Below the pieces are notes generated by a model, which did no database searches, was not told the origin of the DNA, and saw only the letters and a program-made list of their open reading frames with translations. This document shows, piece by piece, positions 580-18,261 of a stretch of DNA of 18,261 nt (within the stretch, counting starts at the first letter, position 1; the number at the start of each line of letters is the position of its first letter). The translations under genes were made by a program, and so were the position numbers. Source of the stretch: an uncultured archaeon (lineage in GTDB: Archaea; Aenigmatarchaeota; Aenigmatarchaeia; CG10238-14); contig CAZRNP010000016.1 in the NCBI GenBank assembly GCA_964601485.1, positions 1 to 18,261 of the forward strand, read 5' to 3'.

Positions 580-705
580 AATGGTTAAGCTAAAAATAGG
601 TTATTAATGGTATTTAGTAGCCAAATTCAAAGACTTGAAAAAAGATGAAAAAATCGGTCCATTGGACCTGAAAATCTATGGACTTTTGGAGAATTGAATC
701 CTTAA

Positions 706-727
706 TGAAGAACAAAAACATATCTGA
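706..727. repeat. 22-nt repeat TGAAGAACAAAAACATATCTGA (copy 1 of 2 near-identical copies)
   Basis: Matches 2152-2173 at 21 of 22 positions in the same orientation. Looser relatives lie at 11269-11293 and 12442-12460. Confidence 0.8.
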
Positions 728-877
728 TTCTGAACTTCCTTCGTAATTATCGCCGAGAGTGAGGAGTGAGTTGTTGTTATTTTAAGAAGGAAAATTCAAC
801 ATGTCATCTGATTCTGTGGGGTTATTTTAAAGGCTTAAATCTTTTATATATAATTTTCTTTTTTTAGAATAAATTTA

Positions 878-1600: not shown

Positions 1601-1763
1601 AATATACCGATAAAATTAAATAATTTATCAAAAATAGACTCGTTAAAACCAAATAATTTAATGGATAAATGGCTAAAAAAGTAGTGAATCCTTCTAATAT
1701 TTCGTATACCAAAAACAATAATAAAATAAATGTAGCAATATCACATTTTTTTCCTTCAAACAT
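1557..1763 (-). CDS. hypothetical small membrane protein (68 aa, two hydrophobic segments)
   Basis: Track ORF with two TM-like stretches (IATFILLLFLVYEIL and LVLTSLFLINYLILSVYFVF). Its 3' end overlaps the start of the 240-aa ORF by 44 nt, suggesting co-transcription. Confidence 0.4.
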   Translation of the reverse strand: MFEGKKCDIATFILLLFLVYEILEGFTTFLAIYPLNYLVLTSLFLINYLILSVYFVFEVDKYLFSTMS

Positions 1764-1920
1764 ACTCTCTAATTAATTATTGTGGATAATGACGTATAAA
1801 CCTTATTTGCGAGCATTTTTCAATTTCGTCCAAAGAACAAAAATCTATATGATTCCGTTTAAATTAAAATGTTTTTCTGGATAGGTAAAGGATAAAAGTT
1901 TAATTTTAAGTTAAATTTTA

Positions 1921-2154
1921 ATGGTCACCGAACATGCTCTTGAAATAGCAAGAATAATTGCCCAAAAATATAGAGTGAAATTAGAAGTTAGTTTTATACA
2001 TAATTCTGACAAGGTAGATGTTAAAATTAGTTATCAAAATCTGAAGGATTTAAATGGTTTTTTAAGTGAATTGTCGAAAACACCAGGGGTTGGATGTGAA
2101 ATATTTTATTGGAGTAAACCAGATTCTAGTAAAACAGATAAATACATTGCTTGA
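1921..2154 (+). CDS. hypothetical protein (77 aa)
   Basis: Track ORF with an ATG start and no motif recognised. Its TGA stop is the first three bases of the 22-nt repeat at 2152-2173. Confidence 0.4.
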   Translation: MVTEHALEIARIIAQKYRVKLEVSFIHNSDKVDVKISYQNLKDLNGFLSELSKTPGVGCEIFYWSKPDSSKTDKYIA

Positions 2155-2173
2155 AGAACAAAAACCTATCTGA
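2152..2173. repeat. 22-nt repeat TGAAGAACAAAAACCTATCTGA (copy 2)
   Basis: 21 of 22 identity to 706-727. Confidence 0.8.
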
Positions 2174-2345
2174 AGTATATTCTCCAGTGAATACTTTCAG
2201 CCGTTTTCCATGATAACAAACCATTAAGAAATGGACTCTTTTGGTTGAAAGGGTTAAGGGAATTTTGAAAGTGAAAAAGTATATAGTGGAGAGGTTAGTT
2301 TAGCCCATTTAGTGTAACTAAAACCATTAAAAACTATATTTGAGC

Positions 2346-2365
2346 TTCAAATCCCTCTCGGTCCA
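2346..2365 (+). repeat. Exact 20-nt copy of the tRNA-Ala 3' end (TTCAAATCCCTCTCGGTCCA): putative att-site remnant
   Basis: Identical to 560-579 (T-loop, 3' T-stem, 3' acceptor strand and discriminator of the tRNA at 508-579). The upstream bases (TGAGC) cannot form the T-stem, so it is a fragment and not a gene. A further 10-nt match, TCGGTCCATT, occurs at 654-663 and 2358-2367. Confidence 0.8.
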
Positions 2366-2453
2366 TTTAATACGTTTAGAATATAATTATATGGAAAATA
2401 CCCTACAAAAACTGTATAATTAATAAATTTAATACAGAAATCAAATATTAATT

Positions 2454-4838: not shown

Positions 4839-4907
4839 ATTCTTAGGTTAAAACGCCGATAAAATTATTTAAACCAAAACCTATAGTCTTTCAAAGGAGG
4901 TTCAACA

Positions 4908-5087
4908 ATGACTTGTTATTGTAAATCTTTATTGGCTGTTTTAGTGATAATCCTTGCTTGGTTTGAAACAGGATACAATCAAATACTCCTGACAATCGTC
5001 GGTCTAGTACTACTTGTCATGAGCATAAAACCAAATATCTGTTGTTGCTGCATGAAAAAAACTGCCAAAAAAACCAAGAAGAGATAA
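4908..5087 (+). CDS. small Cys-rich membrane protein (59 aa), missing from the ORF track
   Basis: Strong SD AAGGAGGT sits 7 nt upstream of ATG 4908. Translation is MTCYCKSLLAVLVIILAWFETGYNQILLTIVGLVLLVMSIKPNICCCCMKKTAKKTKKR. It has two hydrophobic helices, CxC and CCCC motifs, and a basic tail, with stop TAA at 5085-5087. Confidence 0.65.
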   Translation: MTCYCKSLLAVLVIILAWFETGYNQILLTIVGLVLLVMSIKPNICCCCMKKTAKKTKKR

Positions 5088-5164
5088 GTTAAAACTATAA
5101 AGACTTTGAAAACAGCTTTGCATAATCAATATAACCTTCAACTCAGTATCTTTTATAGATAGAA

Positions 5165-5881
5165 ATGATAATAGCTGCCACAGGAGACATCCATTCACCG
5201 AGGCTTTTCGAGTATTTTGTAGAGGCTATGGAAGATTTCCATGCCAAGCCAGACTTGTTTTTTTTATCAGGGGACGTGATCAACAAGGGGAAGGTTGACG
5301 AATACCAAAAGATCTACAACGTATTCTTCGGTAAGATTACTTGTCCCATCATAGCATGTTTTGGTAACGATGAGTTTGGGAATGAGACGAAGATGTTGAT
5401 AGAGAGTCAAGTCCCTGACATCAAGTTTTTAGACGATGAAACTTTGATCGTTGAAGTGCAGGGCAAGTCTGTTGGTATTGTTGGGAGCTTAGGCAGCTTA
5501 GACAGACCATCTTTTTGGCAAAGGAATAATGTCCCTGGTGTAGCCGAGGTATACAAGAAAAGAGTAGGGACTGTGGAGAAACTTCTGTCTGAATTGAGGA
5601 CTGATGTGAAGGTTTTACTCATCCACTACGCCCCCACGTACAAGATTCTTGAAGGAGAGGAAGAAAGAATTTATCCTGAACTGGGTTGTAATGATTATGA
5701 AAGGATCTTGACAGAACAAAAACCTGACCTTGTTATAACTGGGCATTCACACAAAGGAAAAAAACAAGCTTGGGTCGATACTGTCCCGATAGTAAACGTG
5801 GCTTTTCCTCTGAACAAAGAAATAGTCATCATCGATACGGAGAAAGATTTGAAACCTGGGTTGGAGAAGTTTCTTGAATAA
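5165..5881 (+). CDS. calcineurin-like metallophosphoesterase
   Basis: The ordered metallophosphoesterase motifs are all present: GDIH (D-x-H), SGD (G-D), GNDE (G-N-x-E/D), IHYAP (H) and GHSH (G-H-x-H). Confidence 0.9.
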   Translation: MIIAATGDIHSPRLFEYFVEAMEDFHAKPDLFFLSGDVINKGKVDEYQKIYNVFFGKITCPIIACFGNDEFGNETKMLIESQVPDIKFLDDETLIVEVQGKSVGIVGSLGSLDRPSFWQRNNVPGVAEVYKKRVGTVEKLLSELRTDVKVLLIHYAPTYKILEGEEERIYPELGCNDYERILTEQKPDLVITGHSHKGKKQAWVDTVPIVNVAFPLNKEIVIIDTEKDLKPGLEKFLE

Positions 5882-5918
5882 ATTAAAATTTAATGTAACT
5901 TTAGAATTCATTTAAAAC

Positions 5919-7709
5919 TCATACTTTCGACCCCGAGTAACTGGCTCTAAATTCGCTTAAAAAGGGAATTGCATCAACTTCCTTCGAAGGGATGTGAATT
6001 GCAGTTCCCTTCATATAAGCTATCGAGTGAGAAGTATAATTTATTTCAAGTCTTTTAAGCATGTGCATAAATTGTTCGGGAAAATTTGGCCAATAGTTGA
6101 TAGTCGCTTCTGTAACCCGACCCCTATCCCAGATCGCTTGTTCAACGTAACCTCTTAAAAGATTTTCCCCCATCTTCGCTAGTTTCCATGCATTTTCTTC
6201 GTCAACTCTTTCTATACTGTTAAAATCTAAAATGGGGGATAGCTGTGAAGGGAGGCATCGAGCAAATCTCGTGTACTGACCTTTAAATTTTTTCTGTCCA
6301 AATTTTTTTAAACCTTCACCAGATTCTTTTCTTTCAGTTTTTGCGGGTTCGAAATCACCAAAAACCTTAAACCTTTCGAAAGATCTTTCCCCTAATGTCC
6401 TTCTTTCTCCGTAAGAAAAGGTAAAATTTTCATTTGAATAAGTAGTCTTTCCTTCAAATACAGAGCCGAATAGCATCCCTTGCATCTCTTCAGTAATCGG
6501 AAATTTTGGGTTTTTTATGATTAACCCTGCTCCAATTTTGGACCAATATCTTGGGTTATCTAATCTAATTCCAAGTTTTTCTATGGTATCTAACAGAGTT
6601 TTATTTATTACGCTCTTTCCTGTATAATACGTACTGACTATATCAGCTGCAATTCTCCCTATTTTTGAATGAACAGCATCTATATTCAATAAATAGGGTT
6701 TACCTTCATCAACCCAATTTAAAGCCAAAGAATAAGACCAAGGCCACTTATAAGATGTACACAAAACCCATTTCATTTTTTCGTTAGGGCTTCCCATTGC
6801 TTGAATAACTTTAGCTCTTTGCAAAGTTCCAAGGACTTCTTGTTTCTCTCTTATCTTTTGCAATGTAGTTTCAACTTGAGAAGTAGGGAGGAATTCCCCA
6901 AGTTTTTCTCTAAGGCTTTCAACCTTACTATAACCTGCTACGACTCCGTCTATTAATTCTAATAAAGGTTTTGGGTCAGTGTGGGTTTGAATTAATTCAA
7001 TCAAATCTTTTCTGGCCTCTAAGAAAGTCTTTGTAGAACCCCCGAGTCTCCTATCTATTTTTCTGATTGTTTCTCTTGCTTCATCCTTCTTCCCTCCATA
7101 AAGACCCATAGCATCAACCAATGCCTCCTCGTTCAAACCATAAGCTATGTAGTTGCTTATAGGCCCATAAAGTCCCCAATAGATTTTTTCAAAATCTTCT
7201 TTGATGATTCCAAAAGCTTCATGTAACGGATATCCTTTCAAGACTCTTAAATCTGCGACTTTTTCAAGGTCAGGAACTCCTCTGAAGAGAGTTTTAAGTA
7301 TAGGATGAACGGCAATTCCAAATGTGTAAAAAACTGCCTCTCTCTCTATGTATTCATTAGGATTTATTCCTCTTTCTAAAAGACGGGGTTCAGCTCTTTT
7401 ACCAGCTTCTAATAATATCTTTCTTTGATGTTCTCTCCAGATTCGTTCTTGTTTAAGCTCAGAGTTAATACCCCTAACTTGTTCAACTTCGCCTTTAAGA
7501 TCGGCATCAAACAAACGTTCAGCATGAAGTTCAACATCATGAGCGGTGGGATGAACCCTAATTCCTTCTACCTTAATTTCTTGAGTTTCAGCTTTTTTTA
7601 CTAAATCTTTAACCGCTTCATCTAATTGTTGTTCGAGTCTTTCCTCTTCGTCTTTCCAATGCCAAGACAGAGTATGACCTTCTGGTAGATTTCTCCAATC
7701 GATCTGCAT
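5919..7709 (-). CDS. conserved-looking cytosolic protein of unknown function (596 aa)
   Basis: Uninterrupted 1.8-kb ORF with an ATG start, balanced composition and no TM or signal peptide. I found no P-loop, HExxH, KxDG, class I/II aaRS or other diagnostic motif. Confidence 0.8.
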   Translation of the reverse strand: MQIDWRNLPEGHTLSWHWKDEEERLEQQLDEAVKDLVKKAETQEIKVEGIRVHPTAHDVELHAERLFDADLKGEVEQVRGINSELKQERIWREHQRKILLEAGKRAEPRLLERGINPNEYIEREAVFYTFGIAVHPILKTLFRGVPDLEKVADLRVLKGYPLHEAFGIIKEDFEKIYWGLYGPISNYIAYGLNEEALVDAMGLYGGKKDEARETIRKIDRRLGGSTKTFLEARKDLIELIQTHTDPKPLLELIDGVVAGYSKVESLREKLGEFLPTSQVETTLQKIREKQEVLGTLQRAKVIQAMGSPNEKMKWVLCTSYKWPWSYSLALNWVDEGKPYLLNIDAVHSKIGRIAADIVSTYYTGKSVINKTLLDTIEKLGIRLDNPRYWSKIGAGLIIKNPKFPITEEMQGMLFGSVFEGKTTYSNENFTFSYGERRTLGERSFERFKVFGDFEPAKTERKESGEGLKKFGQKKFKGQYTRFARCLPSQLSPILDFNSIERVDEENAWKLAKMGENLLRGYVEQAIWDRGRVTEATINYWPNFPEQFMHMLKRLEINYTSHSIAYMKGTAIHIPSKEVDAIPFLSEFRASYSGSKV

Positions 7710-7923
7710 ATTTTACCATTTAAATGAAAAAGTTAAATAGTTAATTAGTACCAGTAGATATGGCTCTAAATAATTTTCAGTTCCAACAACCTTTTGAGGT
7801 AGATTTCTGTTAAATCAAAAATTATAGTGGTGATCATAAACCTACCAACAAAGCATTTATTAATTAAATTATATTAAAATTTTACAAGCTTGAGAAAAAG
7901 AAAAATTTTAGAAAGAATTGTAG

Positions 7924-10266
7924 GTGAAAATGTTGGAATTTAAACCGAAGATTACAGAAAACAGATGGAATCCTGACTTAGAGAAAAAAATAAAGGAATC
8001 TTGGGAAAAAGAAAAAATCTACGCTTTTAAAGTCAACACAAAAAAGAAGACGTTTACTATAGACACGCCACCGCCATACCCATCTGGGAGGCCATGGCAC
8101 ATAGGCGCAGCGGCTCATTATTCACAGATTGACATGATAGCAAGGACAGCAAGGATGATGGGGTTTGAAGTTTTTTTTCCCATAGGCATCGACAGGAACG
8201 GTTTGCCCGTTGAACTCTACACTGAAAAAAAATACGGTATAAATATCCATGAAACCCCAAGAGAAAAATTCATTGAATTGTGCACGCATGCCCTCGATGA
8301 CTTGGAAGCAGAAATGATTCAGATAATGAAAGTTATGGGGCTGAGCGGGGATTTTGAAAACTATTATCGGACAGACTCAAAAGAATACAGGACTTTAACC
8401 CAATCAACGTTCATCGAACTATGGGATAAAGGCCTAATCTACGAAGACACTAGGCCGAACAATTATTGTGTTAAATGTGGTACGACAATAGCAGACGCAG
8501 AAATAGAATACGAGGAATTGCCGACTGAATTGATCCATGTTAAGTTTAAACTAAAAGGAACTGGTGAAGACATAATAATTGCAACTACAAGGCCAGAATT
8601 GTTGTGCTCTTGTGCTGCTGTCATATTCAACCCAAACGATAAAAGGTACAAGAACTTAGTAGGAAAACATGCGATAGTTCCTGTATTCAATAAAGAAGTA
8701 AAAATTCTTCCAAACCCTTATGCAAAAGAAGATTTCGGTTCTGGTTTAGTCATGGTGTGTTCCTACGGTGATTATTCTGACGTAAGGCTTTTTAGGGAGT
8801 TGAAACTGGAAGAAATCATTGCTGTCACGCCTGAAGGTAAGACGGGTGAGAATGCTGGTAAGTATGCTGGGTTATCTGTCAAAGAAGCGAGGAAAAAAAT
8901 CATCGAAGATTTAGAAAATAGTGGATTAATCCAGAAAAAAGAGGAAATAATGCACAGAACTCCTCTCTGTTACAGGAGTAAGACTCCCATAGAAATAATA
9001 CCCATGAAAGAGTATTACTTGAAACAACTCGATTTTATTCCCGAACTCCTCGCGATTGCTAAAAAAATAAAATTCTTTCCCGAGAGACACAGGCAGATCT
9101 TGGTAGACTGGGTTAATTCTTTGACTATCGATTGGCCGGTATCCAGGAGAAGGTATTATGGGACAGAGATACCAGTTTGGTATTGTAAGAATTGCAAGAA
9201 AGTGTGTCTGCCAGACCCAGGAAAATACTATCAACCGTGGAAAGACAACCCCCCGTTCAAAAAGTGTCCTCACTGTAAATCTGATAAAGGTTTTGAAGGC
9301 GATAACAGGACTTTTGATACTTGGATGGATTCGAGCGTTTCTCCATTGTTCATTTCAAAATACAAGAAAGATGATGAGTTTTTCAAGAAGACTTTCCCTT
9401 CTAGCATAAGGCCCCAAGCAAAAGACATCATAAGGACTTGGCTGCATTACACTATTTTGAGGTGCTATCAGTTGACGAAAAAACCTGCTTTTGATGGGGC
9501 GTGGATAATGGGTTACGGTGTTGATGAGAAAGGAGAAAGGATGAGTAAATCGAAAGGAAACGTCGTTGACCCAATACCGATTTTAGAGAAATACGGCGGT
9601 GATATATTCAGGTTCTGGGACGCTGCTGAAGCTGGTTTGGGCTCAGATTTTAGGTATTCTAACGATAGGATAGAAGGGTCTGCAAAATTCTTGACAAAAT
9701 TGTGGAATATCTCTAGGTTTATCTCTATGTTTCCAGAAATGAAAAAAACTGAATTGACAGCAACAGACAAGTGGATATTGTCAGAGTTGAATGAATTGAC
9801 TAAAAAATGTATTGAAGGTTATGAAAATTTTGATTTCTTCATTCCTGCAATCGCGATAAGAGAGTTTACTTGGAATCTTTTTGCTTCACATTATTTAGAA
9901 ATGGCAAAGCCAAGAGCATACGGGCAGGGGTTTAACGAAAAAGAACAGGAGGCTGCTTGGTATACTTTGCACCTTGTCCTGAAGACTTTGCTTAAGTTAT
10001 TTGCACCCATTGCTCCTTTTATTACTGACTATACTTGGAGAGAGCTGTACGGAAAAGAAAGCATACATCTAGAGCTCTTGCCTAAGCCTGAATGGGGGTT
10101 TGGCCTTGAAAAGTTCACCGGACAAATAACAGAATTCAACACAAACATCTGGAAAATGAAGAAGGATAAAGGACTTAGCTTGAAAACAGAGGTTAAAATC
10201 GAGGTTCCGAAAGAATTGAAGGTATTCGAGAAAGATCTAGTGATGATGCACAATATTAAGGCTTAA
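7924..10266 (+). CDS. valS: valine--tRNA ligase (archaeal type)
   Basis: Class I aaRS. It has the HIGH region PPPYPSGRPWHIGAAAHY, the editing (CP1) signature ATTRPELL and GSGLVMVCSYGD, the KMSKS loop ERMSKSKGN, and an anticodon-binding C-terminus. The size (~780 aa) fits archaeal ValRS. The start is ambiguous: GTG 7924 from the track, or ATG 7930. Confidence 0.88.
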   Translation: MKMLEFKPKITENRWNPDLEKKIKESWEKEKIYAFKVNTKKKTFTIDTPPPYPSGRPWHIGAAAHYSQIDMIARTARMMGFEVFFPIGIDRNGLPVELYTEKKYGINIHETPREKFIELCTHALDDLEAEMIQIMKVMGLSGDFENYYRTDSKEYRTLTQSTFIELWDKGLIYEDTRPNNYCVKCGTTIADAEIEYEELPTELIHVKFKLKGTGEDIIIATTRPELLCSCAAVIFNPNDKRYKNLVGKHAIVPVFNKEVKILPNPYAKEDFGSGLVMVCSYGDYSDVRLFRELKLEEIIAVTPEGKTGENAGKYAGLSVKEARKKIIEDLENSGLIQKKEEIMHRTPLCYRSKTPIEIIPMKEYYLKQLDFIPELLAIAKKIKFFPERHRQILVDWVNSLTIDWPVSRRRYYGTEIPVWYCKNCKKVCLPDPGKYYQPWKDNPPFKKCPHCKSDKGFEGDNRTFDTWMDSSVSPLFISKYKKDDEFFKKTFPSSIRPQAKDIIRTWLHYTILRCYQLTKKPAFDGAWIMGYGVDEKGERMSKSKGNVVDPIPILEKYGGDIFRFWDAAEAGLGSDFRYSNDRIEGSAKFLTKLWNISRFISMFPEMKKTELTATDKWILSELNELTKKCIEGYENFDFFIPAIAIREFTWNLFASHYLEMAKPRAYGQGFNEKEQEAAWYTLHLVLKTLLKLFAPIAPFITDYTWRELYGKESIHLELLPKPEWGFGLEKFTGQITEFNTNIWKMKKDKGLSLKTEVKIEVPKELKVFEKDLVMMHNIKA

Positions 10267-10347
10267 TGTGTCATTAATTCAGTATTTTAAGGGCGATAAT
10301 AGGCGAAAGGTTTATATTCTTTTCCTTCTATAGTTTGTAGGACGTTT

Positions 10348-11055
10348 ATGTATAGTCAAAGGAATAATGTTAATGACTGGGGATTGAAAAGAGAAAATAG
10401 TATTGATAATTATGCAAGAATTGTAAAGGCATCTATTGGCGGGATAAAAAAAACTAGATTAATGTCTGAAGCAGGTTTGAGTTTCACACAACTCAATGGA
10501 GTGAATAGACCGGATAAAAATACAGAGGGATATTTGAAAGAAGTTCTTTTATATCGATTAATAGAACCAAATAATGGAGATTATTGGACGACTGAGGAAG
10601 GTAAGGGATTTTTAAAACATTATCATAAGATGAGAAGTTATTTAAAACCAGGATATTCACCTAAATTCATTCCATCATCAAAACTACAAAGTACAAAACC
10701 CATTGTCGTTAAACAAAAAAAGAATGGAAAAAATCGTACTTTTTACGATATTATAGCTAGATGTGTAGAGGTATCAATTAACGGAATGAAAAAAACTAAA
10801 CTAATGTATGATGCGGGTTTGAACAATGAGAAATTAAAAGAATATAGGAATATACTCACAAGACTTGGATTAATGTTAGAAGAAGATAACAAGCTTTGGG
10901 CAACTGAAAAAGGTATTGAATTCTTAGAGGCTTATAAAATTACAAAGAATTATCTAAGAGACCCATCTGAGGTTTCAGTATCTATGCCAGTGCCACAAAC
11001 CATTATGCCAAATGGTAATGGTGGTTTTGTAAAAAATTTTCGTCAATTTAGTTAA
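10348..11055 (+). CDS. tandem winged-helix (HTH_45/DUF4364-like) DNA-binding protein
   Basis: Two internal repeats: NYARIVKASIGGIKKTRLMSEAGLSFTQL...YWTTEEGKGFLKHY and FYDIIARCVEVSINGMKKTKLMYDAGLNNEKLKEYRNILTRLGLMLEEDNKLWATEKGIEFLEAY. Each fits the archaeal wHTH pattern (G..KT.lMy.agL....l..Y...L...gLi......y.lTekG..fL..Y). A BRE/TATA-like GAAAGGTTTATATT lies ~35 nt upstream of the ATG. Confidence 0.8.
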   Translation: MYSQRNNVNDWGLKRENSIDNYARIVKASIGGIKKTRLMSEAGLSFTQLNGVNRPDKNTEGYLKEVLLYRLIEPNNGDYWTTEEGKGFLKHYHKMRSYLKPGYSPKFIPSSKLQSTKPIVVKQKKNGKNRTFYDIIARCVEVSINGMKKTKLMYDAGLNNEKLKEYRNILTRLGLMLEEDNKLWATEKGIEFLEAYKITKNYLRDPSEVSVSMPVPQTIMPNGNGGFVKNFRQFS

Positions 11056-11120
11056 AATCCTAAAACTTTTAAAAACTTAAATAAACGAATTATTAGTAAA
11101 AAGGAAAGAAATTATACACA

Positions 11121-11139
11121 GGTGGATACGATTTAACAC
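11121..11139 (+). repeat. 19-bp perfect direct repeat GGTGGATACGATTTAACAC (left copy)
   Basis: Identical to 12543-12561. Both copies are preceded by AAATTAT(A/T)-ACA. A second partial copy, TTTAACACAGAAT at 11159-11171, matches 12554-12566 at 12 of 13 positions. Confidence 0.9.
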
Positions 11140-11314
11140 ATATCATGATCAGGAAATCTTTAACACAGAATGCTTCTGAAAATTATAAATTCCCTAAGTT
11201 CTTATGGCCGAGGGAGATAATATCGTTCATGGACCCAATGAAATTAGAATCTCAAAGTTGATACAGTTACCAAAAAATCTATCTGATTCAGAAAAATAAA
11301 AAGAAAAGAAAGGT

Positions 11315-11482
11315 TTAAGCATCTCTAGCTTTCAATGTCTTTCTCCCATTTTCCTTTGCTCTATCAGCAGCCCTTTTAACCATAGCTGCTACATCTGTAT
11401 CAAGTCTCTTCAAGAACTCTTCACTTGCTCTTGCCTTTCCTTTAACTAATTCTCTAACTCCACTCTTAACGATTAAAGCCAT
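11315..11482 (-). CDS. small histone-fold protein (55 aa; archaeal histone / DUF1931-like), missing from the ORF track
   Basis: SD AAGGGGGTGG sits 6 nt upstream of ATG 11482. Translation is MALIVKSGVRELVKGKARASEEFLKRLDTDVAAMVKRAADRAKENGRKTLKARDA. The C-terminal A..A...GRKT(L/I)KA.D matches the L2/alpha3 junction signature of archaeal histones (HMf-type ...AGRKTIKAEDI). The protein ends right after it, so alpha3 is absent. Confidence 0.7.
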   Translation of the reverse strand: MALIVKSGVRELVKGKARASEEFLKRLDTDVAAMVKRAADRAKENGRKTLKARDA

Positions 11483-11540
11483 TTATTTCCACCCCCTTTA
11501 TGATTAAATTTTCATTTAATGGATTTAATATAATAGAAAA

Positions 11541-11666
11541 TCAAAAATATTTTCCTCTCTTCTTTCGCCTTATGTTGCTATCAAATGTATCCGACATGTG
11601 TGATAGTCTACCGAATTCATCAGGCATTATTTTCTTTTTTTGTGATGTGTAATAACCTTTTACCAT
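11541..11666 (-). CDS. possible 41-aa basic micro-protein
   Basis: Own translation is MVKGYYTSQKKKIMPDEFGRLSHMSDTFDSNIRRKKRGKYF. It has an ATG start but only a distant GAGGA upstream, and no homology was recognised. Confidence 0.25.
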   Translation of the reverse strand: MVKGYYTSQKKKIMPDEFGRLSHMSDTFDSNIRRKKRGKYF

Positions 11667-11727
11667 TTTATTTCTCTCATTATCCTCATGCTAAATCAAG
11701 TTGCTAAAAAAGAAAAGGGGTTAGTAT

Positions 11728-11826
11728 TTACTCGTTGCACACCAACGCTCTGTAACCCTCTGCCGCCATTCCTGAGACTAAATAAAACATTAATAGTCTC
11801 ATTGAAAATACTTTTAGTTTTTCCAT
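11728..11826 (-). CDS. possible 32-aa hydrophobic micro-protein (alternative frame to track ORF 11696..11878)
   Basis: SD AAGGTGA (complement of 11832-11838) sits 5 nt upstream of ATG 11826. Translation is MEKLKVFSMRLLMFYLVSGMAAEGYRALVCNE. The overlapping 60-aa track ORF starts at GTG without an SD. I cannot decide which frame, if either, is real. Confidence 0.3.
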   Translation of the reverse strand: MEKLKVFSMRLLMFYLVSGMAAEGYRALVCNE

Positions 11827-12090
11827 TAAACTCACCTTTCGGATTAATAATAACAAGAAGATGGTGGTAGTGTATCACCTTAAGGCACTATTCACTTCAA
11901 GTTCAAAGTCATTCAATAGTTAAATTAAAGTAATCTGTTATATTATATATGTATTATAAGTATTAATATATATCTATTATAGTATAAAATAAAAGTGTTA
12001 CACAATAAAGGAAATTAGGAAATGATAATGATTGGTGGTAGTTTCTAATTGACTTATATTCATCTTCTATGTCTTCTTCGTCTACTTTCT

Positions 12091-12288
12091 TCACCCAACG
12101 CCTCTTTTTTTATCGTCTTTTTTAATATCTTCTTTCTTTTTCTCCTGTTCTCCTTTCTTTTTCTTAACCTCTTTAGTTTTCATAATTGAATTTTCTTTTT
12201 CCAATCTATCTACTAGCTTGCTTGTTCTGCTATGATAAACTATTTTTTTGTGTTTCTTTATTTTCTTCATCCATAATGGTTCTTCCAT
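12091..12288 (-). CDS. possible 65-aa lysine/glutamate-rich protein (shorter form of track ORF 12091..12369)
   Basis: An internal ATG at 12288 is preceded by AAAGGA. Translation is MEEPLWMKKIKKHKKIVYHSRTSKLVDRLEKENSIMKTKEVKKKKGEQEKKKEDIKKDDKKRGVG. The sequence is low-complexity, so it could be a composition artefact. Confidence 0.3.
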   Translation of the reverse strand: MEEPLWMKKIKKHKKIVYHSRTSKLVDRLEKENSIMKTKEVKKKKGEQEKKKEDIKKDDKKRGVG

Positions 12289-12319
12289 AACTATCCTTTC
12301 TCTTATCGAGAATAAAAAT

Positions 12320-12391
12320 TTATTTGATTCTCCCTCTTGTATGTTTGCTACGATTAGGTTTACAACCACGACACCTTTTTTTATTTACCAT
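12320..12391 (-). CDS. possible 23-aa basic CxxC peptide
   Basis: A textbook SD AAGGTGA sits 7 nt upstream of ATG 12391. Translation is MVNKKRCRGCKPNRSKHTRGRIK. It overlaps the 5' part of the 92-aa track ORF in another frame. Confidence 0.3.
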   Translation of the reverse strand: MVNKKRCRGCKPNRSKHTRGRIK

Positions 12392-12542
12392 TTTTTTTCA
12401 CCTTATTTTAATTCTTTAATCTTTTGTTGAATTATATTCCTAAAGAACAAAAATTTATCTTTTTCCCAAATTATTCAATGGGATAAAGGATTTGAAAATA
12501 AAACAGTTAAAGATAAAAATGCCCTTATAAATTATTAACAGA

Positions 12543-12561
12543 GGTGGATACGATTTAACAC
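12543..12561 (+). repeat. 19-bp perfect direct repeat GGTGGATACGATTTAACAC (right copy, inside the aRF1 leader / open frame)
   Basis: Identical to 11121-11139. It lies within the stretch 12539-12589 that is open in the aRF1 frame. Confidence 0.9.
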
Positions 12562-12589
12562 TGAATCCTTAATCAAACTGAGAAAACTC

Positions 12590-13759
12590 TTGAAAACACT
12601 TGAGGGTTTCAAAGGAAGACATACAGAGCTCATTTCCTTGTACATTCCTTCTGGCTACAACATTCAGGAGATAATAGGGATGCTTAAACAGGAATATGCG
12701 TTGACGCAGAACGTTAAGTCTAGGGCGACAAGGCATAACGTCTTAGACGCATTGGAAAAAGTCATGAATTATTTGAGGTTGTTCAAAAAAACACCAATAA
12801 ACGGTTTAGTGGTATTCTGTGGTAATGTTTCAAAAACAGAAGGACAGCCTGAAATCAACCTGTGGTCTGTAGAACCACCTCAACCACTGGCCCAGAAGAT
12901 TTACTGGTGTGACCAGAAGTTCATCCTAGACCCTTTGAAGGACATGGTTAGGGAAAGGGAAGTTTATGGCCTGATCGTCATGGACACTGCTGGTGCTGAC
13001 ATAGGGTTTTTGAAAGGTAAAAAAATCATTCTAGAAAAACACATAGATTCTTTAGTGCCAGGGAAGACTATCAAAGGTGGAGCATCACAAAGAAGGTACC
13101 AAAGAATAAGGGACGAGGCTAAGAATGAACATCTGAAAAAGGTTGGGGAGATAGCATCCAAAATTTTCAAAGAAGAAAAGGATTTGAAAGGCATAATGGT
13201 CGGCGGGCCTGGTTTCGTAAAAGATGATTTCAAAGAAGGGGAGTTTTTAGATTATCAACTGAAACAAAAAATTATGGGTTTGGTCGATACGAGTGATACG
13301 GGTATGCCAGGACTGCAAGAAATGCTAAAAAGAGGGGAATCGTTGGTACAAGAGGCATCTGCAACCAAAGAAAGACATTTAATGGAGGAATTTTTCGAAC
13401 ACTTGAAAAAAGACGATGGCCTATCTGTTTATGGGCTAGAAGAAGTTAAACATGCCCTAGGATATGGAGCAGTAAAGATACTTTTAATGTCTGAAGGGTT
13501 TGACTGGAAAAGAACAAAGCTGGTTTGTTCATGTGGGTACAGCGTTGAGAAGGATATAAGCTCTGAAAGGGTAGAAAAATGTCCTAAATGCGGGAATGAC
13601 TTGAAAATAGAAGAAGAAAAAGAGTTGAGTGAAATTATATCAGAACAAGCCAAAAATTTGGGCTCAGAAGTAGAGATAATATCTTTAGACAGCAGGGATG
13701 GAGAACAATTCAAAGAGATAGGCGGAATTGGGGCGATTTTAAGGTATAAAATTAACTAA
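12590..13759 (+). CDS. prf1: peptide chain release factor aRF1 (eRF1 family) with a non-canonical GGQ region; 5' end uncertain
   Basis: The eRF1/aRF1 hallmarks appear in order: TELISLYIP, an NIKS-like NVKS (12710-12721), YxCxxxF as YWCDQKF, YGLIVMD, the GGQ-loop context PGKTIKGGASQRRYQRIRDE, GIMVGGPGFVKDDF, YGLEEVKHALGYGAVKILLMSE, and a CxC...CxxC mini-domain. The frame is open from 12539. The track start is TTG 12590. Confidence 0.9.
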   Translation: MKTLEGFKGRHTELISLYIPSGYNIQEIIGMLKQEYALTQNVKSRATRHNVLDALEKVMNYLRLFKKTPINGLVVFCGNVSKTEGQPEINLWSVEPPQPLAQKIYWCDQKFILDPLKDMVREREVYGLIVMDTAGADIGFLKGKKIILEKHIDSLVPGKTIKGGASQRRYQRIRDEAKNEHLKKVGEIASKIFKEEKDLKGIMVGGPGFVKDDFKEGEFLDYQLKQKIMGLVDTSDTGMPGLQEMLKRGESLVQEASATKERHLMEEFFEHLKKDDGLSVYGLEEVKHALGYGAVKILLMSEGFDWKRTKLVCSCGYSVEKDISSERVEKCPKCGNDLKIEEEKELSEIISEQAKNLGSEVEIISLDSRDGEQFKEIGGIGAILRYKIN

Positions 13760-13830
13760 ACATGGTTTTCTACCGAATGATAAACAAACTCTTAAATTTT
13801 TAATTATCCTCTTTAGTTCTAGTGATTTAG

Positions 13831-14616
13831 TTGAAAGTAAGAGAAGTTCTTGTTTACAGGCCTGGTGAAGAGATCAACATAGTAGAAAAACCTTTTAGAT
13901 GGGGTTTCTCTCAGACACCATACATGATACCGATGCAGAGAGAACACGATGAAATCATGAAAGTCCTACAGAACGAAGGAGTCAAAGTAAATTATCTGAG
14001 AAAAATGATCGGTTTTAAACCAAAGATGTACGTCTTAAGAGATGATGCTGTTGTTGTGGACAGAAAAGCGGTTGCATGCCATCTTTCTCAGGGGATAAGG
14101 AGGGGTGAAGAACAGATAGTCAAGTTAACGTTGAAAGAACTTGGGATAAAAATAGCTGGACACATCTTTGTTCCTGGTGTTTTAGAGGGGAGTGATTTGT
14201 TCTTCACGAGTAAAAATCATGCCTTCGCCATCGTGGGACCAAGGACCAACATGGAAGGCGTAAACCATCTTAAGGAAATTTTCAAGATAGATGTAACATC
14301 GATCCAAATGGACAATCTTTCCAGCACGCAATTCAACATCATAAACGATATCGCTGTCATAGATGAAGAATTGTCTTATGGTCCCTTGTTTACCGCCTTG
14401 AAAGAAAAGGAATATGACCTAGTCATCGCATCAAAAAAACAAGTCAATGAGATGGCCTTGAACTTCTTGCAGATAGACGATAATAAGATTGTCAACGTAA
14501 AATCAGAAATCAACAAAAAACTAAAGATGATGGGCCTTGACGTGATAGAGGTAGAGATAAGAGACTTGATGAAAGGAAACACTGGTGTTAGGAATATCTG
14601 TTTACCCTTCTACTGA
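13831..14616 (+). CDS. pentein-fold enzyme (amidinotransferase / dimethylarginine dimethylaminohydrolase / arginine deiminase-like)
   Basis: The ~260-aa length is typical of DDAH-like proteins. The N-terminus VLVYRP...EH..i...L...GV.V..L, the central DLFF, and the C-terminal G.TGVRNICLPF carrying the expected catalytic Cys near the C-terminus all fit. The TTG start at 13831 is preceded by AGTGAT. The call comes from pattern memory only. Confidence 0.65.
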   Translation: MKVREVLVYRPGEEINIVEKPFRWGFSQTPYMIPMQREHDEIMKVLQNEGVKVNYLRKMIGFKPKMYVLRDDAVVVDRKAVACHLSQGIRRGEEQIVKLTLKELGIKIAGHIFVPGVLEGSDLFFTSKNHAFAIVGPRTNMEGVNHLKEIFKIDVTSIQMDNLSSTQFNIINDIAVIDEELSYGPLFTALKEKEYDLVIASKKQVNEMALNFLQIDDNKIVNVKSEINKKLKMMGLDVIEVEIRDLMKGNTGVRNICLPFY

Positions 14617-15099
14617 TTTTGAATACGTTACGTTTAGTTTAGAGGTTCGGACTATAATTTTTGTGAAATCTTTGTTCCAGTCGGTTTGAATCGCTGTGGT
14701 TTGCCCTGATTTTAAAGGATCTCTTGGTTTGTTGATTATGTTTACCTTATTCTCATCCACATAAACAGTGAAGTTAGAGATTTGTATTTTACCAGGGTTA
14801 GAAACAGTTATCAAAAGGTTGTTGTTAGAATCCCTAGAAACTTCTGATACCTCTATGTTTTGGAATATTCTCTTGATGTAATTAACAATGTCGAAAGAAG
14901 ATGGATTTTGTGGGAATAAAGGACCGATTATCGGTATTGACCTAAGGCTCGGTATCGAACCTAAGATGAGGTGACCGGCTATAAGCGCAAAAAATATTAA
15001 GATTAAACCTATAGCTAAGCTCTTGACTATTTTGATCATCGTGTAAACTATTACTGCTAAAATCAAAATGCCTATAATTATTGAAATGACCATGTTCAA
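14602..15099 (-). CDS. hypothetical membrane protein (two N-terminal TM helices plus a beta-rich extracellular domain)
   Basis: Track ORF. Its TTG start is at 15099 and an alternative ATG lies at 15093. TM helices are ISIIIGILILAVIVYTMI and LAIGLILIFFALIAGHLILG. The 3' end overlaps the convergent pentein gene by 15 nt. Confidence 0.6.
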   Translation of the reverse strand: MNMVISIIIGILILAVIVYTMIKIVKSLAIGLILIFFALIAGHLILGSIPSLRSIPIIGPLFPQNPSSFDIVNYIKRIFQNIEVSEVSRDSNNNLLITVSNPGKIQISNFTVYVDENKVNIINKPRDPLKSGQTTAIQTDWNKDFTKIIVRTSKLNVTYSKSVEG

Positions 15100-15190
15100 T
15101 ATATTTGTAGCAGAATTTAAGTATATTTCTCAGTGGTGTTTTCATTTTTTAATATTTTTAAAACCATACAAAATTATTTAAATTTAAACA

Positions 15191-15207
15191 TGGATAATTT
15201 ATCCAGG
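15191..15207. promoter_or_regulatory. 17-bp site TGGATAATTTATCCAGG (15-bp perfect palindrome TGGATAA-T-TTATCCA): putative operator, copy 1
   Basis: Ends 4 nt before ATG 15212 and lies 15 nt downstream of the TATA-like ATTTAAA (15176-15182). An identical 17-mer is at 17511-17527. Confidence 0.7.
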
Positions 15208-15211
15208 TTAC

Positions 15212-16903
15212 ATGAAAAGGATAATTTTGATTTTAATTTATTTTCAGATTATGATACTTCTGATATTACCACAATTTGTAGTTGCTAATTCGAACCTCAC
15301 TATAGCAATAGATTGGCTTAAAAAAAATCAGAGAGAAGATGGTTCCTATGGTTCTTGGACTGAACATTGGACTTCACCAGCAATGATAGCGCTCTATAAG
15401 AGCGAAGGTAATTCGTCTAATGTAACAACAGGTTTAAACTGGTTGAAGACCCAACTAGAAGATTCCTCTTCATGGTTCTGGGAAACATGGGGCGAAGCAG
15501 ATGTTCCTAGTATATCACTCTATGCTTTCACTCAAACAGACCATTTATCTGACATCGATCTATCCAATATCTCATCGAACATTCTCTCTTTTCAACAGAT
15601 GAGTGGCGGTTTCAAGGGATATTATGATCCAAATCTAGGCAGCCAAGTGGAAAGTAGTGTTGATACTACAATAGCAGTGTTGGGTTTAATAAATGCTAAT
15701 GCAATACCAGAAGAGAATAAGAATAAAGCAGTGAATTACTTGTTAAACCTGCAGAACTCAGACGGAAGTTTTAATCTAACACCCACCATACAATCTGATC
15801 CTTTATACTCTCACGCTCCTGAACCGATCAGTCTAACCGCGATGGTATTACTTACGCTGAAAGATTGTGGACTAGACACATCAAACACTTCTGTTCTGAA
15901 CGGAATGAACTATTTGAAAAATTCTGCTACCAATTGTTTTGATAATCACAGTTATGCTACTGCCTTATCATCAATAGTATTCGATCGATTCAACGAATTA
16001 AGTTATGAATTAATCGCGATAAATTGTTTAAAAAGTCTACAAAATCCAGATGGAGGGTTTTCAGATAGAATACGTACCACAAATGTTTCAAACGCTCTTG
16101 ATACTGGTTGGGCTGCTATCGCTCTACAAAAAGTTACACCGTTGATCAAAGTAGGAGTTTTAATCAGTTTTCCGAATGGAACAACATTTGCTCATTGCTT
16201 ACAATTACCGAATGGTTCAACCGCAGAAGATGCGTTAAAAGCCAGTGGTATGAAAACATTATGGGCATCTTTCAGTTTTGGTGATGCATTAACGAAGATT
16301 GAAGATGTAGGCTGTCCAACCTCAGATCCTTGGTGTCAATGTTCTAATATGAATGTTTGCTGTTTGCTCTGGAATTTTTGGATACTCAATTCAACCAATC
16401 AATGGAAATTCTCTCAAGTGGGATTTGGAGACTATAAGCTGAAAGATAAAGATGTATTTGGCAATATATGGGCGAGTGATGCAGGCAAAACACCTCCTTT
16501 ATTTTTATTCGATGAGATATGTCCTGATGGATTCACAATCAACAACAATTCCTTTGTTGGTGTTTACACTTGTGATTCAACTACGACAACCACGATTACG
16601 ACAACTTCTGTTGAAGTAACAACAACAGTCGTTGAGCATGGGGGTGGTGGTATGATCACAACTACGACAACGCAAACTACTGTTCCGATGACTACGACTA
16701 GTATTCAAACGACTACATCAACTACATTTTCACCTGCTCCAACTACAACAAGCACTGTCATTACAAACGTCACGAACAATCAGTTAAAGCCTAGTCCGTT
16801 AACAGGGTTTGTTGGTTTTATAATTTCTCCAGTTGGTATCGGTATAATTGTTGCAATAGTTGTCCTAGCATTTTTTGTTTATTTAATGTTGCCAGAGAGA
16901 TAG
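15212..16903 (+). CDS. surface-anchored protein: prenyltransferase/terpene-cyclase-like alpha/alpha toroid + DUF4430 (transcobalamin-beta-like) domain + Thr-rich stalk + C-terminal TM anchor
   Basis: Signal peptide MKRIILILIYFQIMILLILPQFVVA. There are six repeats of the type WL...Q..DGSyG / SGGFKGYY / LQNSDGSFN / LQNPDGGFSD (aa ~30-308). Aa ~312-421 read GVLISFPNGTT...GSTAEDALKASG...W.FWILN...QWKFSQVGFGDYKLKDKDVFGNIW, which fits the DUF4430 pattern. A poly-Thr stalk spans aa ~456-517. The C-terminus is PLTGFVGFIISPVGIGIIVAIVVLAFFVYLMLPER. Many N-x-S/T sequons are present. Confidence 0.85.
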   Translation: MKRIILILIYFQIMILLILPQFVVANSNLTIAIDWLKKNQREDGSYGSWTEHWTSPAMIALYKSEGNSSNVTTGLNWLKTQLEDSSSWFWETWGEADVPSISLYAFTQTDHLSDIDLSNISSNILSFQQMSGGFKGYYDPNLGSQVESSVDTTIAVLGLINANAIPEENKNKAVNYLLNLQNSDGSFNLTPTIQSDPLYSHAPEPISLTAMVLLTLKDCGLDTSNTSVLNGMNYLKNSATNCFDNHSYATALSSIVFDRFNELSYELIAINCLKSLQNPDGGFSDRIRTTNVSNALDTGWAAIALQKVTPLIKVGVLISFPNGTTFAHCLQLPNGSTAEDALKASGMKTLWASFSFGDALTKIEDVGCPTSDPWCQCSNMNVCCLLWNFWILNSTNQWKFSQVGFGDYKLKDKDVFGNIWASDAGKTPPLFLFDEICPDGFTINNNSFVGVYTCDSTTTTTITTTSVEVTTTVVEHGGGGMITTTTTQTTVPMTTTSIQTTTSTTFSPAPTTTSTVITNVTNNQLKPSPLTGFVGFIISPVGIGIIVAIVVLAFFVYLMLPER

Positions 16904-17470
16904 TGCTACTTTTATTGAAGCTTCTTCTGATATTTTTTTCGTAGAACCTGAGCCTATTATTATGACATCTCCGTTCTCAACCTTGAAATGGTTACGGAGG
17001 ATTTTTTCCAATCCTGTAATTTTTCTGTTGCATCCTGGGAATATTAGTCTGTTATTATTACAAACCAAAGTTGTTGCGCCATCAGCTCCTATTTTTATAG
17101 CCTCGTCCCTCTGCTCGATGCCGAATTTAACTTTTTTTGATGAGCCTTTAACAAGAATTGCAGTGTTGTACTTTCCGATTGTGCATTCACTCGTGTCTAT
17201 TTCTATAGGTTTTGAGATTTTCATCAGGATTTTTTTCAACAGTTCATTCCCTTTTTCAGTCAGTACATGCCCTTTAGTAGAAGGCTTAATTAATTTATTC
17301 ATTTTCAGACGCTTTACAAGAGTTTTAATCGTAGCTTCCCCCATTTCCATTTCTTTCATCAGTTGAAACCTTCCCATGGGTTTTTCGGAGAGTAAAAAAA
17401 GGGTCTTAACTATATGGACAGGGGAATAAGATGCCCTGACATCGATCAAATCTTTAAACATGTTATCCAT
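16883..17470 (-). CDS. winged-helix transcriptional regulator with an uncharacterised C-terminal domain (possibly the archaeal DUF4443 family)
   Basis: The N-terminus IVKTLFLLSEKPMGRFQLMKEMEMGEATIKTLVKRLKMNKLIKPSTKGHVLTEKGNELL is a MarR/PadR-like wHTH. The C-terminal ~110 aa (GADGATTLV...IIIGSGS) look like a small-ligand-binding or dimerisation domain. The gene is divergent from the S-component-like gene, and its 3' end overlaps the 563-aa gene by 21 nt. Confidence 0.75.
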   Translation of the reverse strand: MDNMFKDLIDVRASYSPVHIVKTLFLLSEKPMGRFQLMKEMEMGEATIKTLVKRLKMNKLIKPSTKGHVLTEKGNELLKKILMKISKPIEIDTSECTIGKYNTAILVKGSSKKVKFGIEQRDEAIKIGADGATTLVCNNNRLIFPGCNRKITGLEKILRNHFKVENGDVIIIGSGSTKKISEEASIKVALSLWQH

Positions 17471-17510
17471 ATGTATATTTTATAATCAAAAGATTTAAAA
17501 AATTAAAAAT

Positions 17511-17527
17511 TGGATAATTTATCCAGG
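17511..17527. promoter_or_regulatory. 17-bp site TGGATAATTTATCCAGG: putative operator, copy 2
   Basis: Identical to 15191-15207. It ends 8 nt before ATG 17536 (3 nt before an out-of-frame ATG at 17531) and lies 18 nt downstream of the TATA-like ATTTAAA (17493-17499). It sits in the divergent intergenic region shared with the regulator gene, whose start is at 17470. Confidence 0.7.
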
Positions 17528-17535
17528 ATCATGCC

Positions 17536-18261
17536 ATGGAACAAGAATTAAAACAAAAAAGTCAACAGGGAACTTTACTTTTGTCTGCTCAAAGGACGAA
17601 ATATTCCTTGAAGAGAAAATTGTTATTAATGATGGGTTTAACTTCCTTAGGAATCTTAGGAAGGGCTGCATTCCAATTCATACCGAGCGTTGAACCCTTG
17701 ACGCCCTTGGCTATATTGACTGGGTTTTTACTTGGCCCGATTTCTGGTTTTATTTCTGGTGTTGTTGGTTTTTATCTATCCAATTTTCTCGTTTGGGGTT
17801 TTCAAGGGCCTTGGACTGTTTTCCAATGTTTGGGTGCAGGTCTGGCAGGTTTCATCGGTGGGTTGATAGGAAAGTTAGGGAAGAAATCGAGGACAAAATT
17901 TTTAATATCCACTTTAATAGGGATAATCGTTTATGAGATAATTGTGACTGTTTCCATGGGAATGATGTTCTCTTTACCATTGTTAGTGTTCTATACAATA
18001 ACTAGTATTCCATTCTCTATAGTTCATTTGTCGAGTAGCTTAGGTTTTTCCCTATCATTTTACGAGTTCAAAGAACAGATAAAAAAATTGAAGGGTGGTT
18101 TAGTTGAAAAAGAGATACTTGGCTTCAGGGTTGCTCATAGTAGTACTGGCAAGCCTGGTAATAAACTTGTACCTTACCTTTACTCCAGAAAAATCCACAG
18201 AAAAGATAAGGGTAGTAGCAAGGATAGATTTTGGTGCTTCAGAAAAGACAAAGACAGTTGA
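17536..18261 (+). CDS. polytopic membrane protein resembling an ECF-transporter substrate-specific (S) component, with a basic C-terminal tail
   Basis: Five to six TM helices. The stretch IPSVEPLTPLAILTGFLLGPISGFISGVVGFYLSNFLVWGFQGPWTVFQCLGAGLAGFIGGLIG fits the general S-component pattern (P.v.P.t...ilaG.llGp..Gf..G....l.sn.l.g.G.W..fQ....l.G...G). The TGA stop is at the last base of the window. Family assignment comes from pattern memory only. Confidence 0.6.
   Translation: MEQELKQKSQQGTLLLSAQRTKYSLKRKLLLMMGLTSLGILGRAAFQFIPSVEPLTPLAILTGFLLGPISGFISGVVGFYLSNFLVWGFQGPWTVFQCLGAGLAGFIGGLIGKLGKKSRTKFLISTLIGIIVYEIIVTVSMGMMFSLPLLVFYTITSIPFSIVHLSSSLGFSLSFYEFKEQIKKLKGGLVEKEILGFRVAHSSTGKPGNKLVPYLYSRKIHRKDKGSSKDRFWCFRKDKDS

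Follow-up and report, generated by a model that had tools for sequence, protein, structure and literature searches.

A variant archaeal release factor aRF1 with GGASQ in place of the GGQ motif in an Aenigmatarchaeota contig

In this study, an 18,261-nucleotide stretch of DNA from an uncultured archaeon (Aenigmatarchaeota; contig CAZRNP010000016.1, positions 1 to 18,261 of the forward strand), here called the window, was analyzed for its gene encoding aRF1, the archaeal class-I release factor. The catalytic loop of this protein reads Gly-Gly-Ala-Ser-Gln (GGASQ), with Ala in place of the Gln of the signature motif Gly-Gly-Gln (GGQ). Its descent and architecture are those of an aRF1, but its signature motif is noncanonical, and hence it is a variant. 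The observation was confirmed, and it extends further than could be known to the original prediction, which was made from the letters of the window alone. Among the sequences collected, the non-GGQ state is clade-wide and recurrent, not peculiar to one gene. The window aRF1 is likely to be the orthologous and probably sole class-I release factor of its organism, a DPANN archaeon of the Aenigmarchaeota type, and one that most likely decodes the three stop codons and hydrolyzes peptidyl-tRNA with a GGxSQ loop.

The window protein scored 448 bits against the aRF1 equivalog model TIGR03676, with a cut-off of 234.7 bits. The Pfam domains eRF1_1 (residues 2–120, 54.6 bits), eRF1_2 (residues 126–254, 128.2 bits), and eRF1_3 (residues 259–388, 91.2 bits) were all detected. 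The loop K-G-G-A-S-Q-R-R-Y is encoded at 13073–13099 of the window. In HMMER alignments with solved aRF1 and eRF1 chains, the loop carried no gap and Ala165 fell on the position of the catalytic Gln: KGGASQRRYQRIR of the window was aligned with KGGQSAQRFARLR (4af1), MGGQSQRRYERI (3agk), and RGGQSALRFARLR (3j5y), whose loops read KGGQSAQRF, MGGQSQRRY, and RGGQSALRF, respectively. The MAFFT alignment of 15 GGQ and non-GGQ relatives had zero indels in the catalytic loop. The tripeptide that marks the aRF1/eRF1 class as GGQ is GGA in the window protein, and a Gln (Gln167) is read from the DNA two residues past the Ala. Both alignments agreed with the original prediction on this placement.

The decoding motifs of aRF1 are present, as had been claimed. 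The NIKS motif occurs as NVKS, a conservative Ile-to-Val change common to the clade. In a further alignment (A2), N41 and K43 were invariant and S44 was at least 90% conserved, and Y105, C107, and F111 of the YxCxxxF motif were invariant. The original prediction had also described HTE and NVKS as slightly off consensus. Both are indeed present, but they are ordinary in this part of the DPANN archaea and not peculiar to the loss of GGQ. Neighboring GGQ-type DPANN aRF1s have RGRHTEL as their consensus too, and therefore HTE is not linked to the missing GGQ. RHTE and NVKS were rejected as linked decoding changes, being either the consensus of GGQ-type neighbors or conservative.

The three-dimensional structure of the window protein was modelled with AlphaFold2. 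The model had a mean predicted local distance difference test score (pLDDT) of 87 and the eRF1/aRF1 fold. The top Foldseek matches in the PDB were aRF1 and eRF1 chains (E = 5e-39), with a template modelling (TM) score of up to 0.79 for the eRF3-bound conformation, while matches to Balon and Pelota were weaker by many orders of magnitude. Modelling of the M domain had been suggested earlier; the model supported the fold only and was silent on the direction of Gln167 on the ribosome. The family scores, the gap-free loop alignments, the decoding motifs, and the fold together established that the observation was correct.

The related families were rejected as identities of the protein. The Pelota model TIGR00111 gave 106.5 bits against a cut-off of 177.65, in agreement with the original prediction that the protein is aRF1 and not Pelota. 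Only the M and C domains were matched by it (residues 110–388), and the N domain of the window protein is eRF1_1 with NVKS, not the Sm-like domain of Pelota. The Balon-type models NF052289 (Rv2629) and NF052288 (MSMEG_1130) gave 39.6 bits against 320 and 20.8 bits against 480, respectively; Balon-type proteins are marked by the absence of NIKS, while the window protein has a NIKS-type motif. The acVLRF1 model NF041024 gave 38.9 bits with a cut-off of 125. A PF18859 match of 45 bits lies beneath the stronger eRF1_2 match, and GGQ-type aRF1s carry a PF18859 match too.

If the GGA tripeptide were an artefact, it would come from an assembly or sequencing error at 13082–13084 or from an indel that really sets Gln167 at the canonical position. 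The second route, a loop-length variant, had been named in advance as one that could refute the finding; the HMMER and MAFFT alignments had no gap in the loop, and zero loop gaps were found in any alignment. As for the first, an independent Logan assembly of run ERR4334730 contained a 4465-bp contig 100% identical to the window. At least two bases must differ for a Gln codon (CAR) to become an Ala codon (GCN), and GGA was found in 16 sequences, with 183 non-GGQ sequences overall. A 100-kb JGI contig (L085), syntenic with the window at approximately 82% nucleotide identity, encodes an aRF1 with 84% amino acid identity and the loop codons GGA GCG TCA CAG, which differ synonymously from those of the window at both the Ala and the Gln codon. 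The genes common to the two are ValRS-like, helix-turn-helix (HTH), aRF1, ADI-like, prenyltransferase-like, DUF4443, and ECF transporter genes. Between the two aRF1 genes, the gene-wide nonsynonymous (dN) and synonymous (dS) divergences were 0.083 and 1.33, and the dN/dS of approximately 0.06 indicates purifying selection, in line with the earlier proposal that the gene is under selection. With the clade-wide conservation described below, these comparisons effectively refuted the artefact explanation, the chance of which is negligible. An altered genetic code was not supported. TAA, TGA, and TAG are all used as stops and end open reading frames (ORFs) of the window, and thus there was no sign of a changed code; the two tRNAs of the window (Ser and Ala) are not suppressors.

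The distribution of the variant was investigated in protein clusters related to the window protein. All of the 120 best clusters, from 99% down to 52% identity, were full-length and without GGQ. The loop was GGWSQ in 79, GGMSQ in 17, GGASQ in 13, GGMSA in 3, and GGASH in 2, and GGWSA, GGYSQ, and GGFSQ occurred once each. The named clusters were labelled 'Candidatus Aenigmarchaeota/Aenigmatarchaeota', except for one Micrarchaeota label. The earlier proposal to align aRF1s of relatives thus gave a clear answer: the non-GGQ state is lineage-wide, mostly as GGWSQ, with GGASQ in the nearest relatives. The GGA sequences were the nearest to the window (at least 81% identity) and the next relatives (at most 81%) had GGW, which indicates a recent change from Trp to Ala within the GGW clade. 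By this comparison, Ala at the third motif position appears to be a late derivative of Trp in the genus-level subclade of the window.

Farther from the window, the two states are mixed. In a search of 1.84 billion cluster representatives, GGQ returned at approximately 46% identity (P0131, GGQSAQRFERVR), and scattered non-GGQ representatives were found beyond it. A search from P0131 showed that the DPANN neighborhood is a mosaic of GGQSA/GGQSS and GGWSQ/GGWSA, both with Aenigmarchaeota labels. The labels of the P0131 family, the nearest one of the GGQ type, conflict: some NCBI records have 'Candidatus Aenigmarchaeota archaeon', and records in the GTDB collection for genes with 80–83% identity have 'Candidatus Nanohaloarchaea archaeon'. 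Phylum-level statements drawn from labels therefore need caution. In one close homologue, P0087 (328 aa), the greater part of the M domain is missing, and with it the entire GGx loop (...EKEIY|VAKSIF...); the sequence may represent a pseudogene, a variant with a deletion, or a misassembly.

Loop statistics were obtained from 374 pooled full-length aRF1s with inteins spliced out; the residue after Gly-Gly is counted as position 3, and later residues are numbered from it. Position 3 was Gln in 191, Trp in 130, Met in 26, Ala in 16, Phe in 5, Glu in 2, and Tyr, Ser, Asp, or Leu in 1 each. Pro was found at this position in 0 of the 374. The +2 residue differed strongly between the two groups. It was Ala in 138, Ser in 27, Gln in 23, His in 2, and Glu in 1 of the 191 GGQ proteins, and Gln in 165, Ala in 16, and His in 2 of the 183 non-GGQ proteins. 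Gln at +2 was thus present in 90% of the non-GGQ proteins versus 12% of the GGQ proteins. The rest of the loop was constant: Ser at +1 was kept in 374 of 374, Gly-Gly was kept in all but 2 aberrant sequences, Arg169, Arg172, and Arg174 were invariant in alignment A2, and GGQ and non-GGQ loops were equally long. A loop that is still catalytic is predicted to keep Gly-Gly, Ser, the Arg helix, and its exact length and to have no Pro at position 3, and this is the pattern found. The alternation of R-F and R-Y at +5 (Tyr in 168 of the 183 non-GGQ proteins) was not used as a covarying column, since it follows the big clade and not the independent origins.

The number of origins was estimated from a rough neighbor-joining tree with the motif columns masked. 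The window lay inside a 122-member clade in which all members were non-GGQ, with a short stem of 0.034, within a larger, mostly non-GGQ DPANN group. At least 14 changes between Gln and non-Gln were required, a number that is only indicative because the tree is rough. Stronger evidence came from several non-GGQ lineages that were clearly nearer to GGQ sequences than to any other non-GGQ sequence, namely P0150/P0285 (GGFSQ), P0169 (GGWSQ), P0267 (GGWSQ), P0148 (GGFSQ), and P0227 (GGESQ). The P0169 lineage consists of 8 clusters (P0169, P0400–P0406) with 60–100% identity, all with KGGWSQ(R/K)RFER, and its next relatives (at most 50% identity, including a Diapherotrites-labelled metagenome-assembled genome) have AGGQSSVRFER. 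This neighborhood indicates that the change from GGQSS to GGWSQ occurred apart from the Aenigmarchaeota-type clade. On this evidence, GG(W/F)SQ arose independently several times. The recurrent combination of loss of Gln at position 3 and Gln at +2 is the strongest argument for a functional link between both positions. In GCA_003558235.1 (PWMI01000075.1, L087), the gene of the P0169 lineage lies between a diphthamide-synthesis gene and truD.

The original prediction had offered as one reading a non-hydrolyzing paralogue with a canonical GGQ aRF1 encoded elsewhere in the genome. Such a paralogue could bind stop codons, rescue ribosomes, or act in hibernation in the manner of Balon or Pelota. The catalytic Gln is characteristically lost in Pelota/Dom34, in Balon, and in most baeRF-1 families (PMC6514570; PMC13324472), and Aenigmatarchaeota-labelled metagenome-assembled genomes with a canonical GGQ aRF1 exist. 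However, the window protein keeps the NIKS-type and YxCxxxF motifs, while the putative archaeal Balon has no NIKS (PMC13324472), and its scores for TIGR00111, NF052289, and NF052288 were far under the cut-offs. The gene order also speaks against a paralogue. A ValRS-like aminoacyl-tRNA synthetase gene is directly upstream of aRF1 at the GGQ-type locus of P0321 (L003) and at the GGW-type locus of P0077 (L001), a 780-kb contig in which P0077 stands among ribosomal-protein genes. The GGA genes of the window and of L085 have the same order from synthetase to aRF1 with inserted genes, so that the variant occupies the slot of the GGQ-type orthologues.

The number of aRF1 genes per genome was investigated in a GTDB scan with one genome per species, of which the best 80 loci were kept. 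These were in 80 different assemblies, none of which occurred twice; 26 loci were non-GGQ and 54 were GGQ. GGQ and non-GGQ loci were never in one genome among them. The closed chromosome CP070804.1 (742 kb) had GGWSQ only, the closed chromosome CP066684.1 (875 kb) had GGQSA only, and a 791-kb contig had GGMSQ only. In the search lists from the window protein and P0131, no long contig carrying both a GGQ and a non-GGQ aRF1 was found among the matches listed. Taken together, these findings favor a single aRF1 in each genome, the motif being a trait of the lineage. The short clade stem shows no rate acceleration, and Gly-Gly, Ser, Arg, and the loop length are invariant. Given synteny, one locus per genome in the best 80, short branches, and the conserved loop, the paralogue reading was disfavored, and we regard it as very unlikely.

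A mechanism can be proposed for the loop of a sole release factor. In bacterial release factors, the side chain of the Gln, together with its N5-methylation, modulates how water is positioned, which nucleophile is selected, and how tightly the factor binds. In the lineage of the window, the loop was remodelled from GGQ-S-(A/S) to GG-(W/M/A/F/Y)-S-Q with its length unchanged. The invariant Gly-Gly would let the loop tip reach the peptidyl-transferase center, and core catalysis would come from the backbone NH of residue 3, for which any residue except Pro should suffice. In the accepted view, it is the backbone amide of the Gln that catalyzes hydrolysis, and Gly-Gly gives the loop access to the peptidyl-transferase center (PMC6742477). 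The role of the amide side chain in positioning and selecting water would pass to the Gln at +2 in most members, and Gln167 would be the probable side-chain substitute for the canonical Gln in the window protein. The Trp at position 3, conserved in most of the clade, presumably packs against rRNA, and Ala has replaced it secondarily in the window subclade. The comparisons show the identity of the protein, signals of orthology, conservation across the lineage, covariation, and convergence; catalytic competence and the role of Gln167 are what we infer.

The GGxSQ arrangement that would result resembles the VLRF1 families (aVLRF-1 and acVLRF1, and eukaryotic Vms1/ANKZF1), which are peptidyl-tRNA hydrolases of the aeRF-1 superfamily. 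The catalytic loop of aVLRF-1/acVLRF1 is GGxSQ or GxuQ, with the Gln placed behind a tiny residue and shifted from where it stands in GGQ (PMC6514570). GGASQ in the window and GG(W/M/F/Y)SQ in its relatives have the GGxSQ form, and GG(A/W/M)SQ fits it exactly. The displacement of Gln by two residues therefore has a precedent within the same superfamily. The architecture is different: VLRF1 proteins lack the N domain for stop-codon recognition, have a longer catalytic loop, and serve ribosome quality control on large subunits, while the window protein is a three-domain aRF1 that has the codon-recognition domain.

Several results do not fit a simple transfer of function to Gln167, or a sole release factor. 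Gln at +2 is not obligatory, since it is absent in 18 of the 183 non-GGQ proteins; 10 of these have Asn at +3 (9 GGWSAN and 1 aberrant AGLSAN) and 1 has Gln at +3. GGASHA, GGMSAA, and GGMSAR have zero amide in the loop, and two such clusters are 81–84% identical to the window. Among the canonical proteins, 12% likewise have Gln at +2 next to an intact GGQ, and therefore its enrichment may be due in part to ancestry. The long helix of the AlphaFold model (H165–194) begins as early as residue 165, which would put Gln167 on another helix face; the loop pLDDT was only approximately 64. In yeast eRF1, replacing the Gln of GGQ is lethal. A more divergent second aRF1 may lie beyond the best 80 loci. 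The displaced-Gln reading of the original prediction is thus favored by the 90% versus 12% distribution and by convergence, but it does not hold in absolute form, since GGASH, GGMSA, and GGWSAN exist.

The same variants keep alive a different explanation for a functional sole aRF1, in which the Gln is simply dispensable, hydrolysis needs no more than the geometry of Gly-Gly and the backbone NH group at position 3, and the Gln at +2 is inherited or incidental. Slow-growing, genome-reduced DPANN symbionts would then tolerate or compensate for slower or less selective release, and, once Mtq2 had been lost, a bulky hydrophobic Trp, Met, or Phe might pack in the way that N5-methyl-Gln does. The full-length proteins with no amide in the loop, some of them close to the window (GGASHA in P0006 and P0013, GGMSAA, and GGMSAR), are consistent with this explanation, as is the tolerance of Trp, Met, Ala, Phe, and Tyr at position 3. 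It also agrees with the backbone amide as the accepted catalytic group (PMC6742477). Mtq2 normally methylates GGQ in archaea and does not accept a GGA mutant as its substrate (PMC6144793). In 85 loci and the window, searched by motif and not with a query suited to the lineage, no Mtq2-like ORF (NPPY and a motif for S-adenosylmethionine binding) was found. However, the coupling of Gln loss at position 3 to Gln at +2 is repeatedly convergent and hard to explain with a dispensable Gln, and the independent P0169 lineage made the same change from GGQSS to GGWSQ. A dispensable Gln was therefore judged unlikely, though worth serious consideration. The likely explanation is still a sole, catalytic aRF1 with a GGxSQ loop.

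Compared with canonical aRF1/eRF1 (TIGR03676; PDB 4af1, 3agk/3vmf, and 5lzt), this variant aRF1 shares the three domains, the NIKS-type and YxCxxxF motifs, the Gly-Gly tip, Ser at +1, the Arg-rich helix, the Cys4 insert of the C domain, the fold, and the ValRS-adjacent slot of GGQ-type relatives. It differs in that the catalytic, normally methylated Gln is Ala in the window and Trp, Met, Phe, or Tyr in relatives, with Gln at +2. Pelota/Dom34 and Balon-type proteins have M and C domains homologous to its own, likewise occupy the A site, and also lack the GGQ Gln. Unlike the window protein, they have neither NIKS nor YxCxxxF, the N domain of Pelota is Sm-like, and their loop shows little conservation and varies in length. 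They co-occur with a canonical aRF1; the sequence and fold scores of the window protein to both are far weaker. In the non-catalytic relatives Pelota and most baeRF-1, the Gln was lost along with loop conservation and the constraint on length (Burroughs and Aravind, PMC6514570). Engineered GGQ-to-GGA proteins, such as the Haloferax volcanii aRF1 Q187A substrate control, have the same GGA tripeptide. They are laboratory mutants that served as methylation-negative or activity-reduced controls (PMC6144793), while the GGA of the window is natural, selected, and accompanied by the Gln at +2.

GGQ is regarded as one of a small number of strictly universal motifs in the translation machinery and has been called 'universally conserved', including in aRF1 (PMC6144793; PMC5799190). 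The GGQ of aRF1 was proposed to be methylated by Mtq2 'in archaea in general' (PMC6144793). GGQ is also used as the criterion of a catalytically active release-factor homologue (PMC6514570; PMC13324472), and the absence of NIKS and GGQ separates Balon-like proteins from aeRF1 (PMC13324472). A full-text literature search found no description of an aRF1 lacking GGQ. The broader claim that GGQ is not universal, and that a large DPANN clade (the Aenigmarchaeota type and its neighbors) and several independent archaeal lineages convergently moved the Gln of their sole release factor to +2 (GGQS[A/S] to GG[W/F/M/A]SQ), a few having dispensed with Gln, has in our judgment an even chance of being right. 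If so, termination in these archaea would run on a different active-site arrangement, possibly tied to the loss or retargeting of the Gln-methyltransferase Mtq2, and the substrate of Mtq2/Trm112 in these organisms becomes a question. A natural, selected, and recurrent exception to GGQ would allow the contribution of the Gln side chain and its methylation to be tested against that of the backbone amide. GGWSQ, GGMSQ, GGASQ, GGWSAN, and GGASH form a natural series for such biochemistry. Annotation by motif, in which the absence of GGQ means an inactive, Pelota-like, or Balon-like protein, would give the wrong name to the genuine release factor in many DPANN archaea.

Inteins were found in many archaeal aRF1 genes, exactly between motif residue 3 and the invariant Ser (...GGx|C....HN|S...). 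The equivalent site in the window is 13084/13085, and P0093 and P0102 are examples. Inteins occurred in 59 of the first 400 sequences collected, both as mini inteins (133–152 aa) and as large ones (approximately 400–580 aa). The hosts had GGQ in 42 cases, GGM in 8, GGW in 6, and GGF in 2, and one was a doubtful GGS parse. That GGQ and non-GGQ hosts alike carry inteins at GGx|S is as expected if the site is indispensable for function. The literature search found no account of an intein in aRF1. The features of the window are listed in Table 1.

Table 1. Positions of the aRF1 gene, its motifs, and the upstream synthetase gene in the window.
Feature	Position	Strand	Remark
aRF1 gene	12590–13759	+	389 aa; start TTG 12590, stop TAA 13757–13759
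Catalytic loop G163-G164-A165-S166-Q167	13076–13090	+	GGT GGA GCA TCA CAA
NVKS, NIKS-type stop-codon recognition motif, residues 41–44	12710–12721	+	
YxCxxxF decoding motif, Y105-W-C107-D-Q-K-F111	12902–12922	+	
Cys4 zinc-ribbon insert of the C domain, C313, C315, C331, C334	13526–13591	+	typical of archaeal aRF1
ValRS-like class-I aminoacyl-tRNA synthetase	7924–10266	+	upstream of aRF1; Pfam tRNA-synt_1 and Anticodon_1; synteny anchor

The annotated TTG of the aRF1 gene is probably not its true start, which may lie up to 21 nt upstream (12569–12590). The frame is open from 12539, and the in-frame sequence ...ESLIKLRKLL upstream of the TTG extends the N-terminal helix and matches the M(I/V)KLRKLL with which homologous aRF1s begin. 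None of ATG, GTG, or TTG stands at the homologous start position, because TTA and ATC are found there. A Shine-Dalgarno-like GGTGG box is located at 12543–12547, and nucleotide conservation between the window and L085 begins at 12505.

Between the HTH_45 gene and aRF1, approximately 1.5 kb of the window (11056–12589) contains no ORF longer than 92 aa. Rfam and ARAGORN found nothing over this interval. At the corresponding position, L085 has a 1481-aa S8 peptidase/FG-GAP gene on the minus strand, of which tblastn found no remnant in the window. Elsewhere in the window, ARAGORN called a 92-nt tRNA-Ser with the anticodon ACT at 357–448 on the minus strand, an unusual call since A34 is rare. The anticodon may have been mis-assigned in a tRNA with a long variable arm or an intron, and the Rfam tRNA model matched the same site with 46.9 bits.

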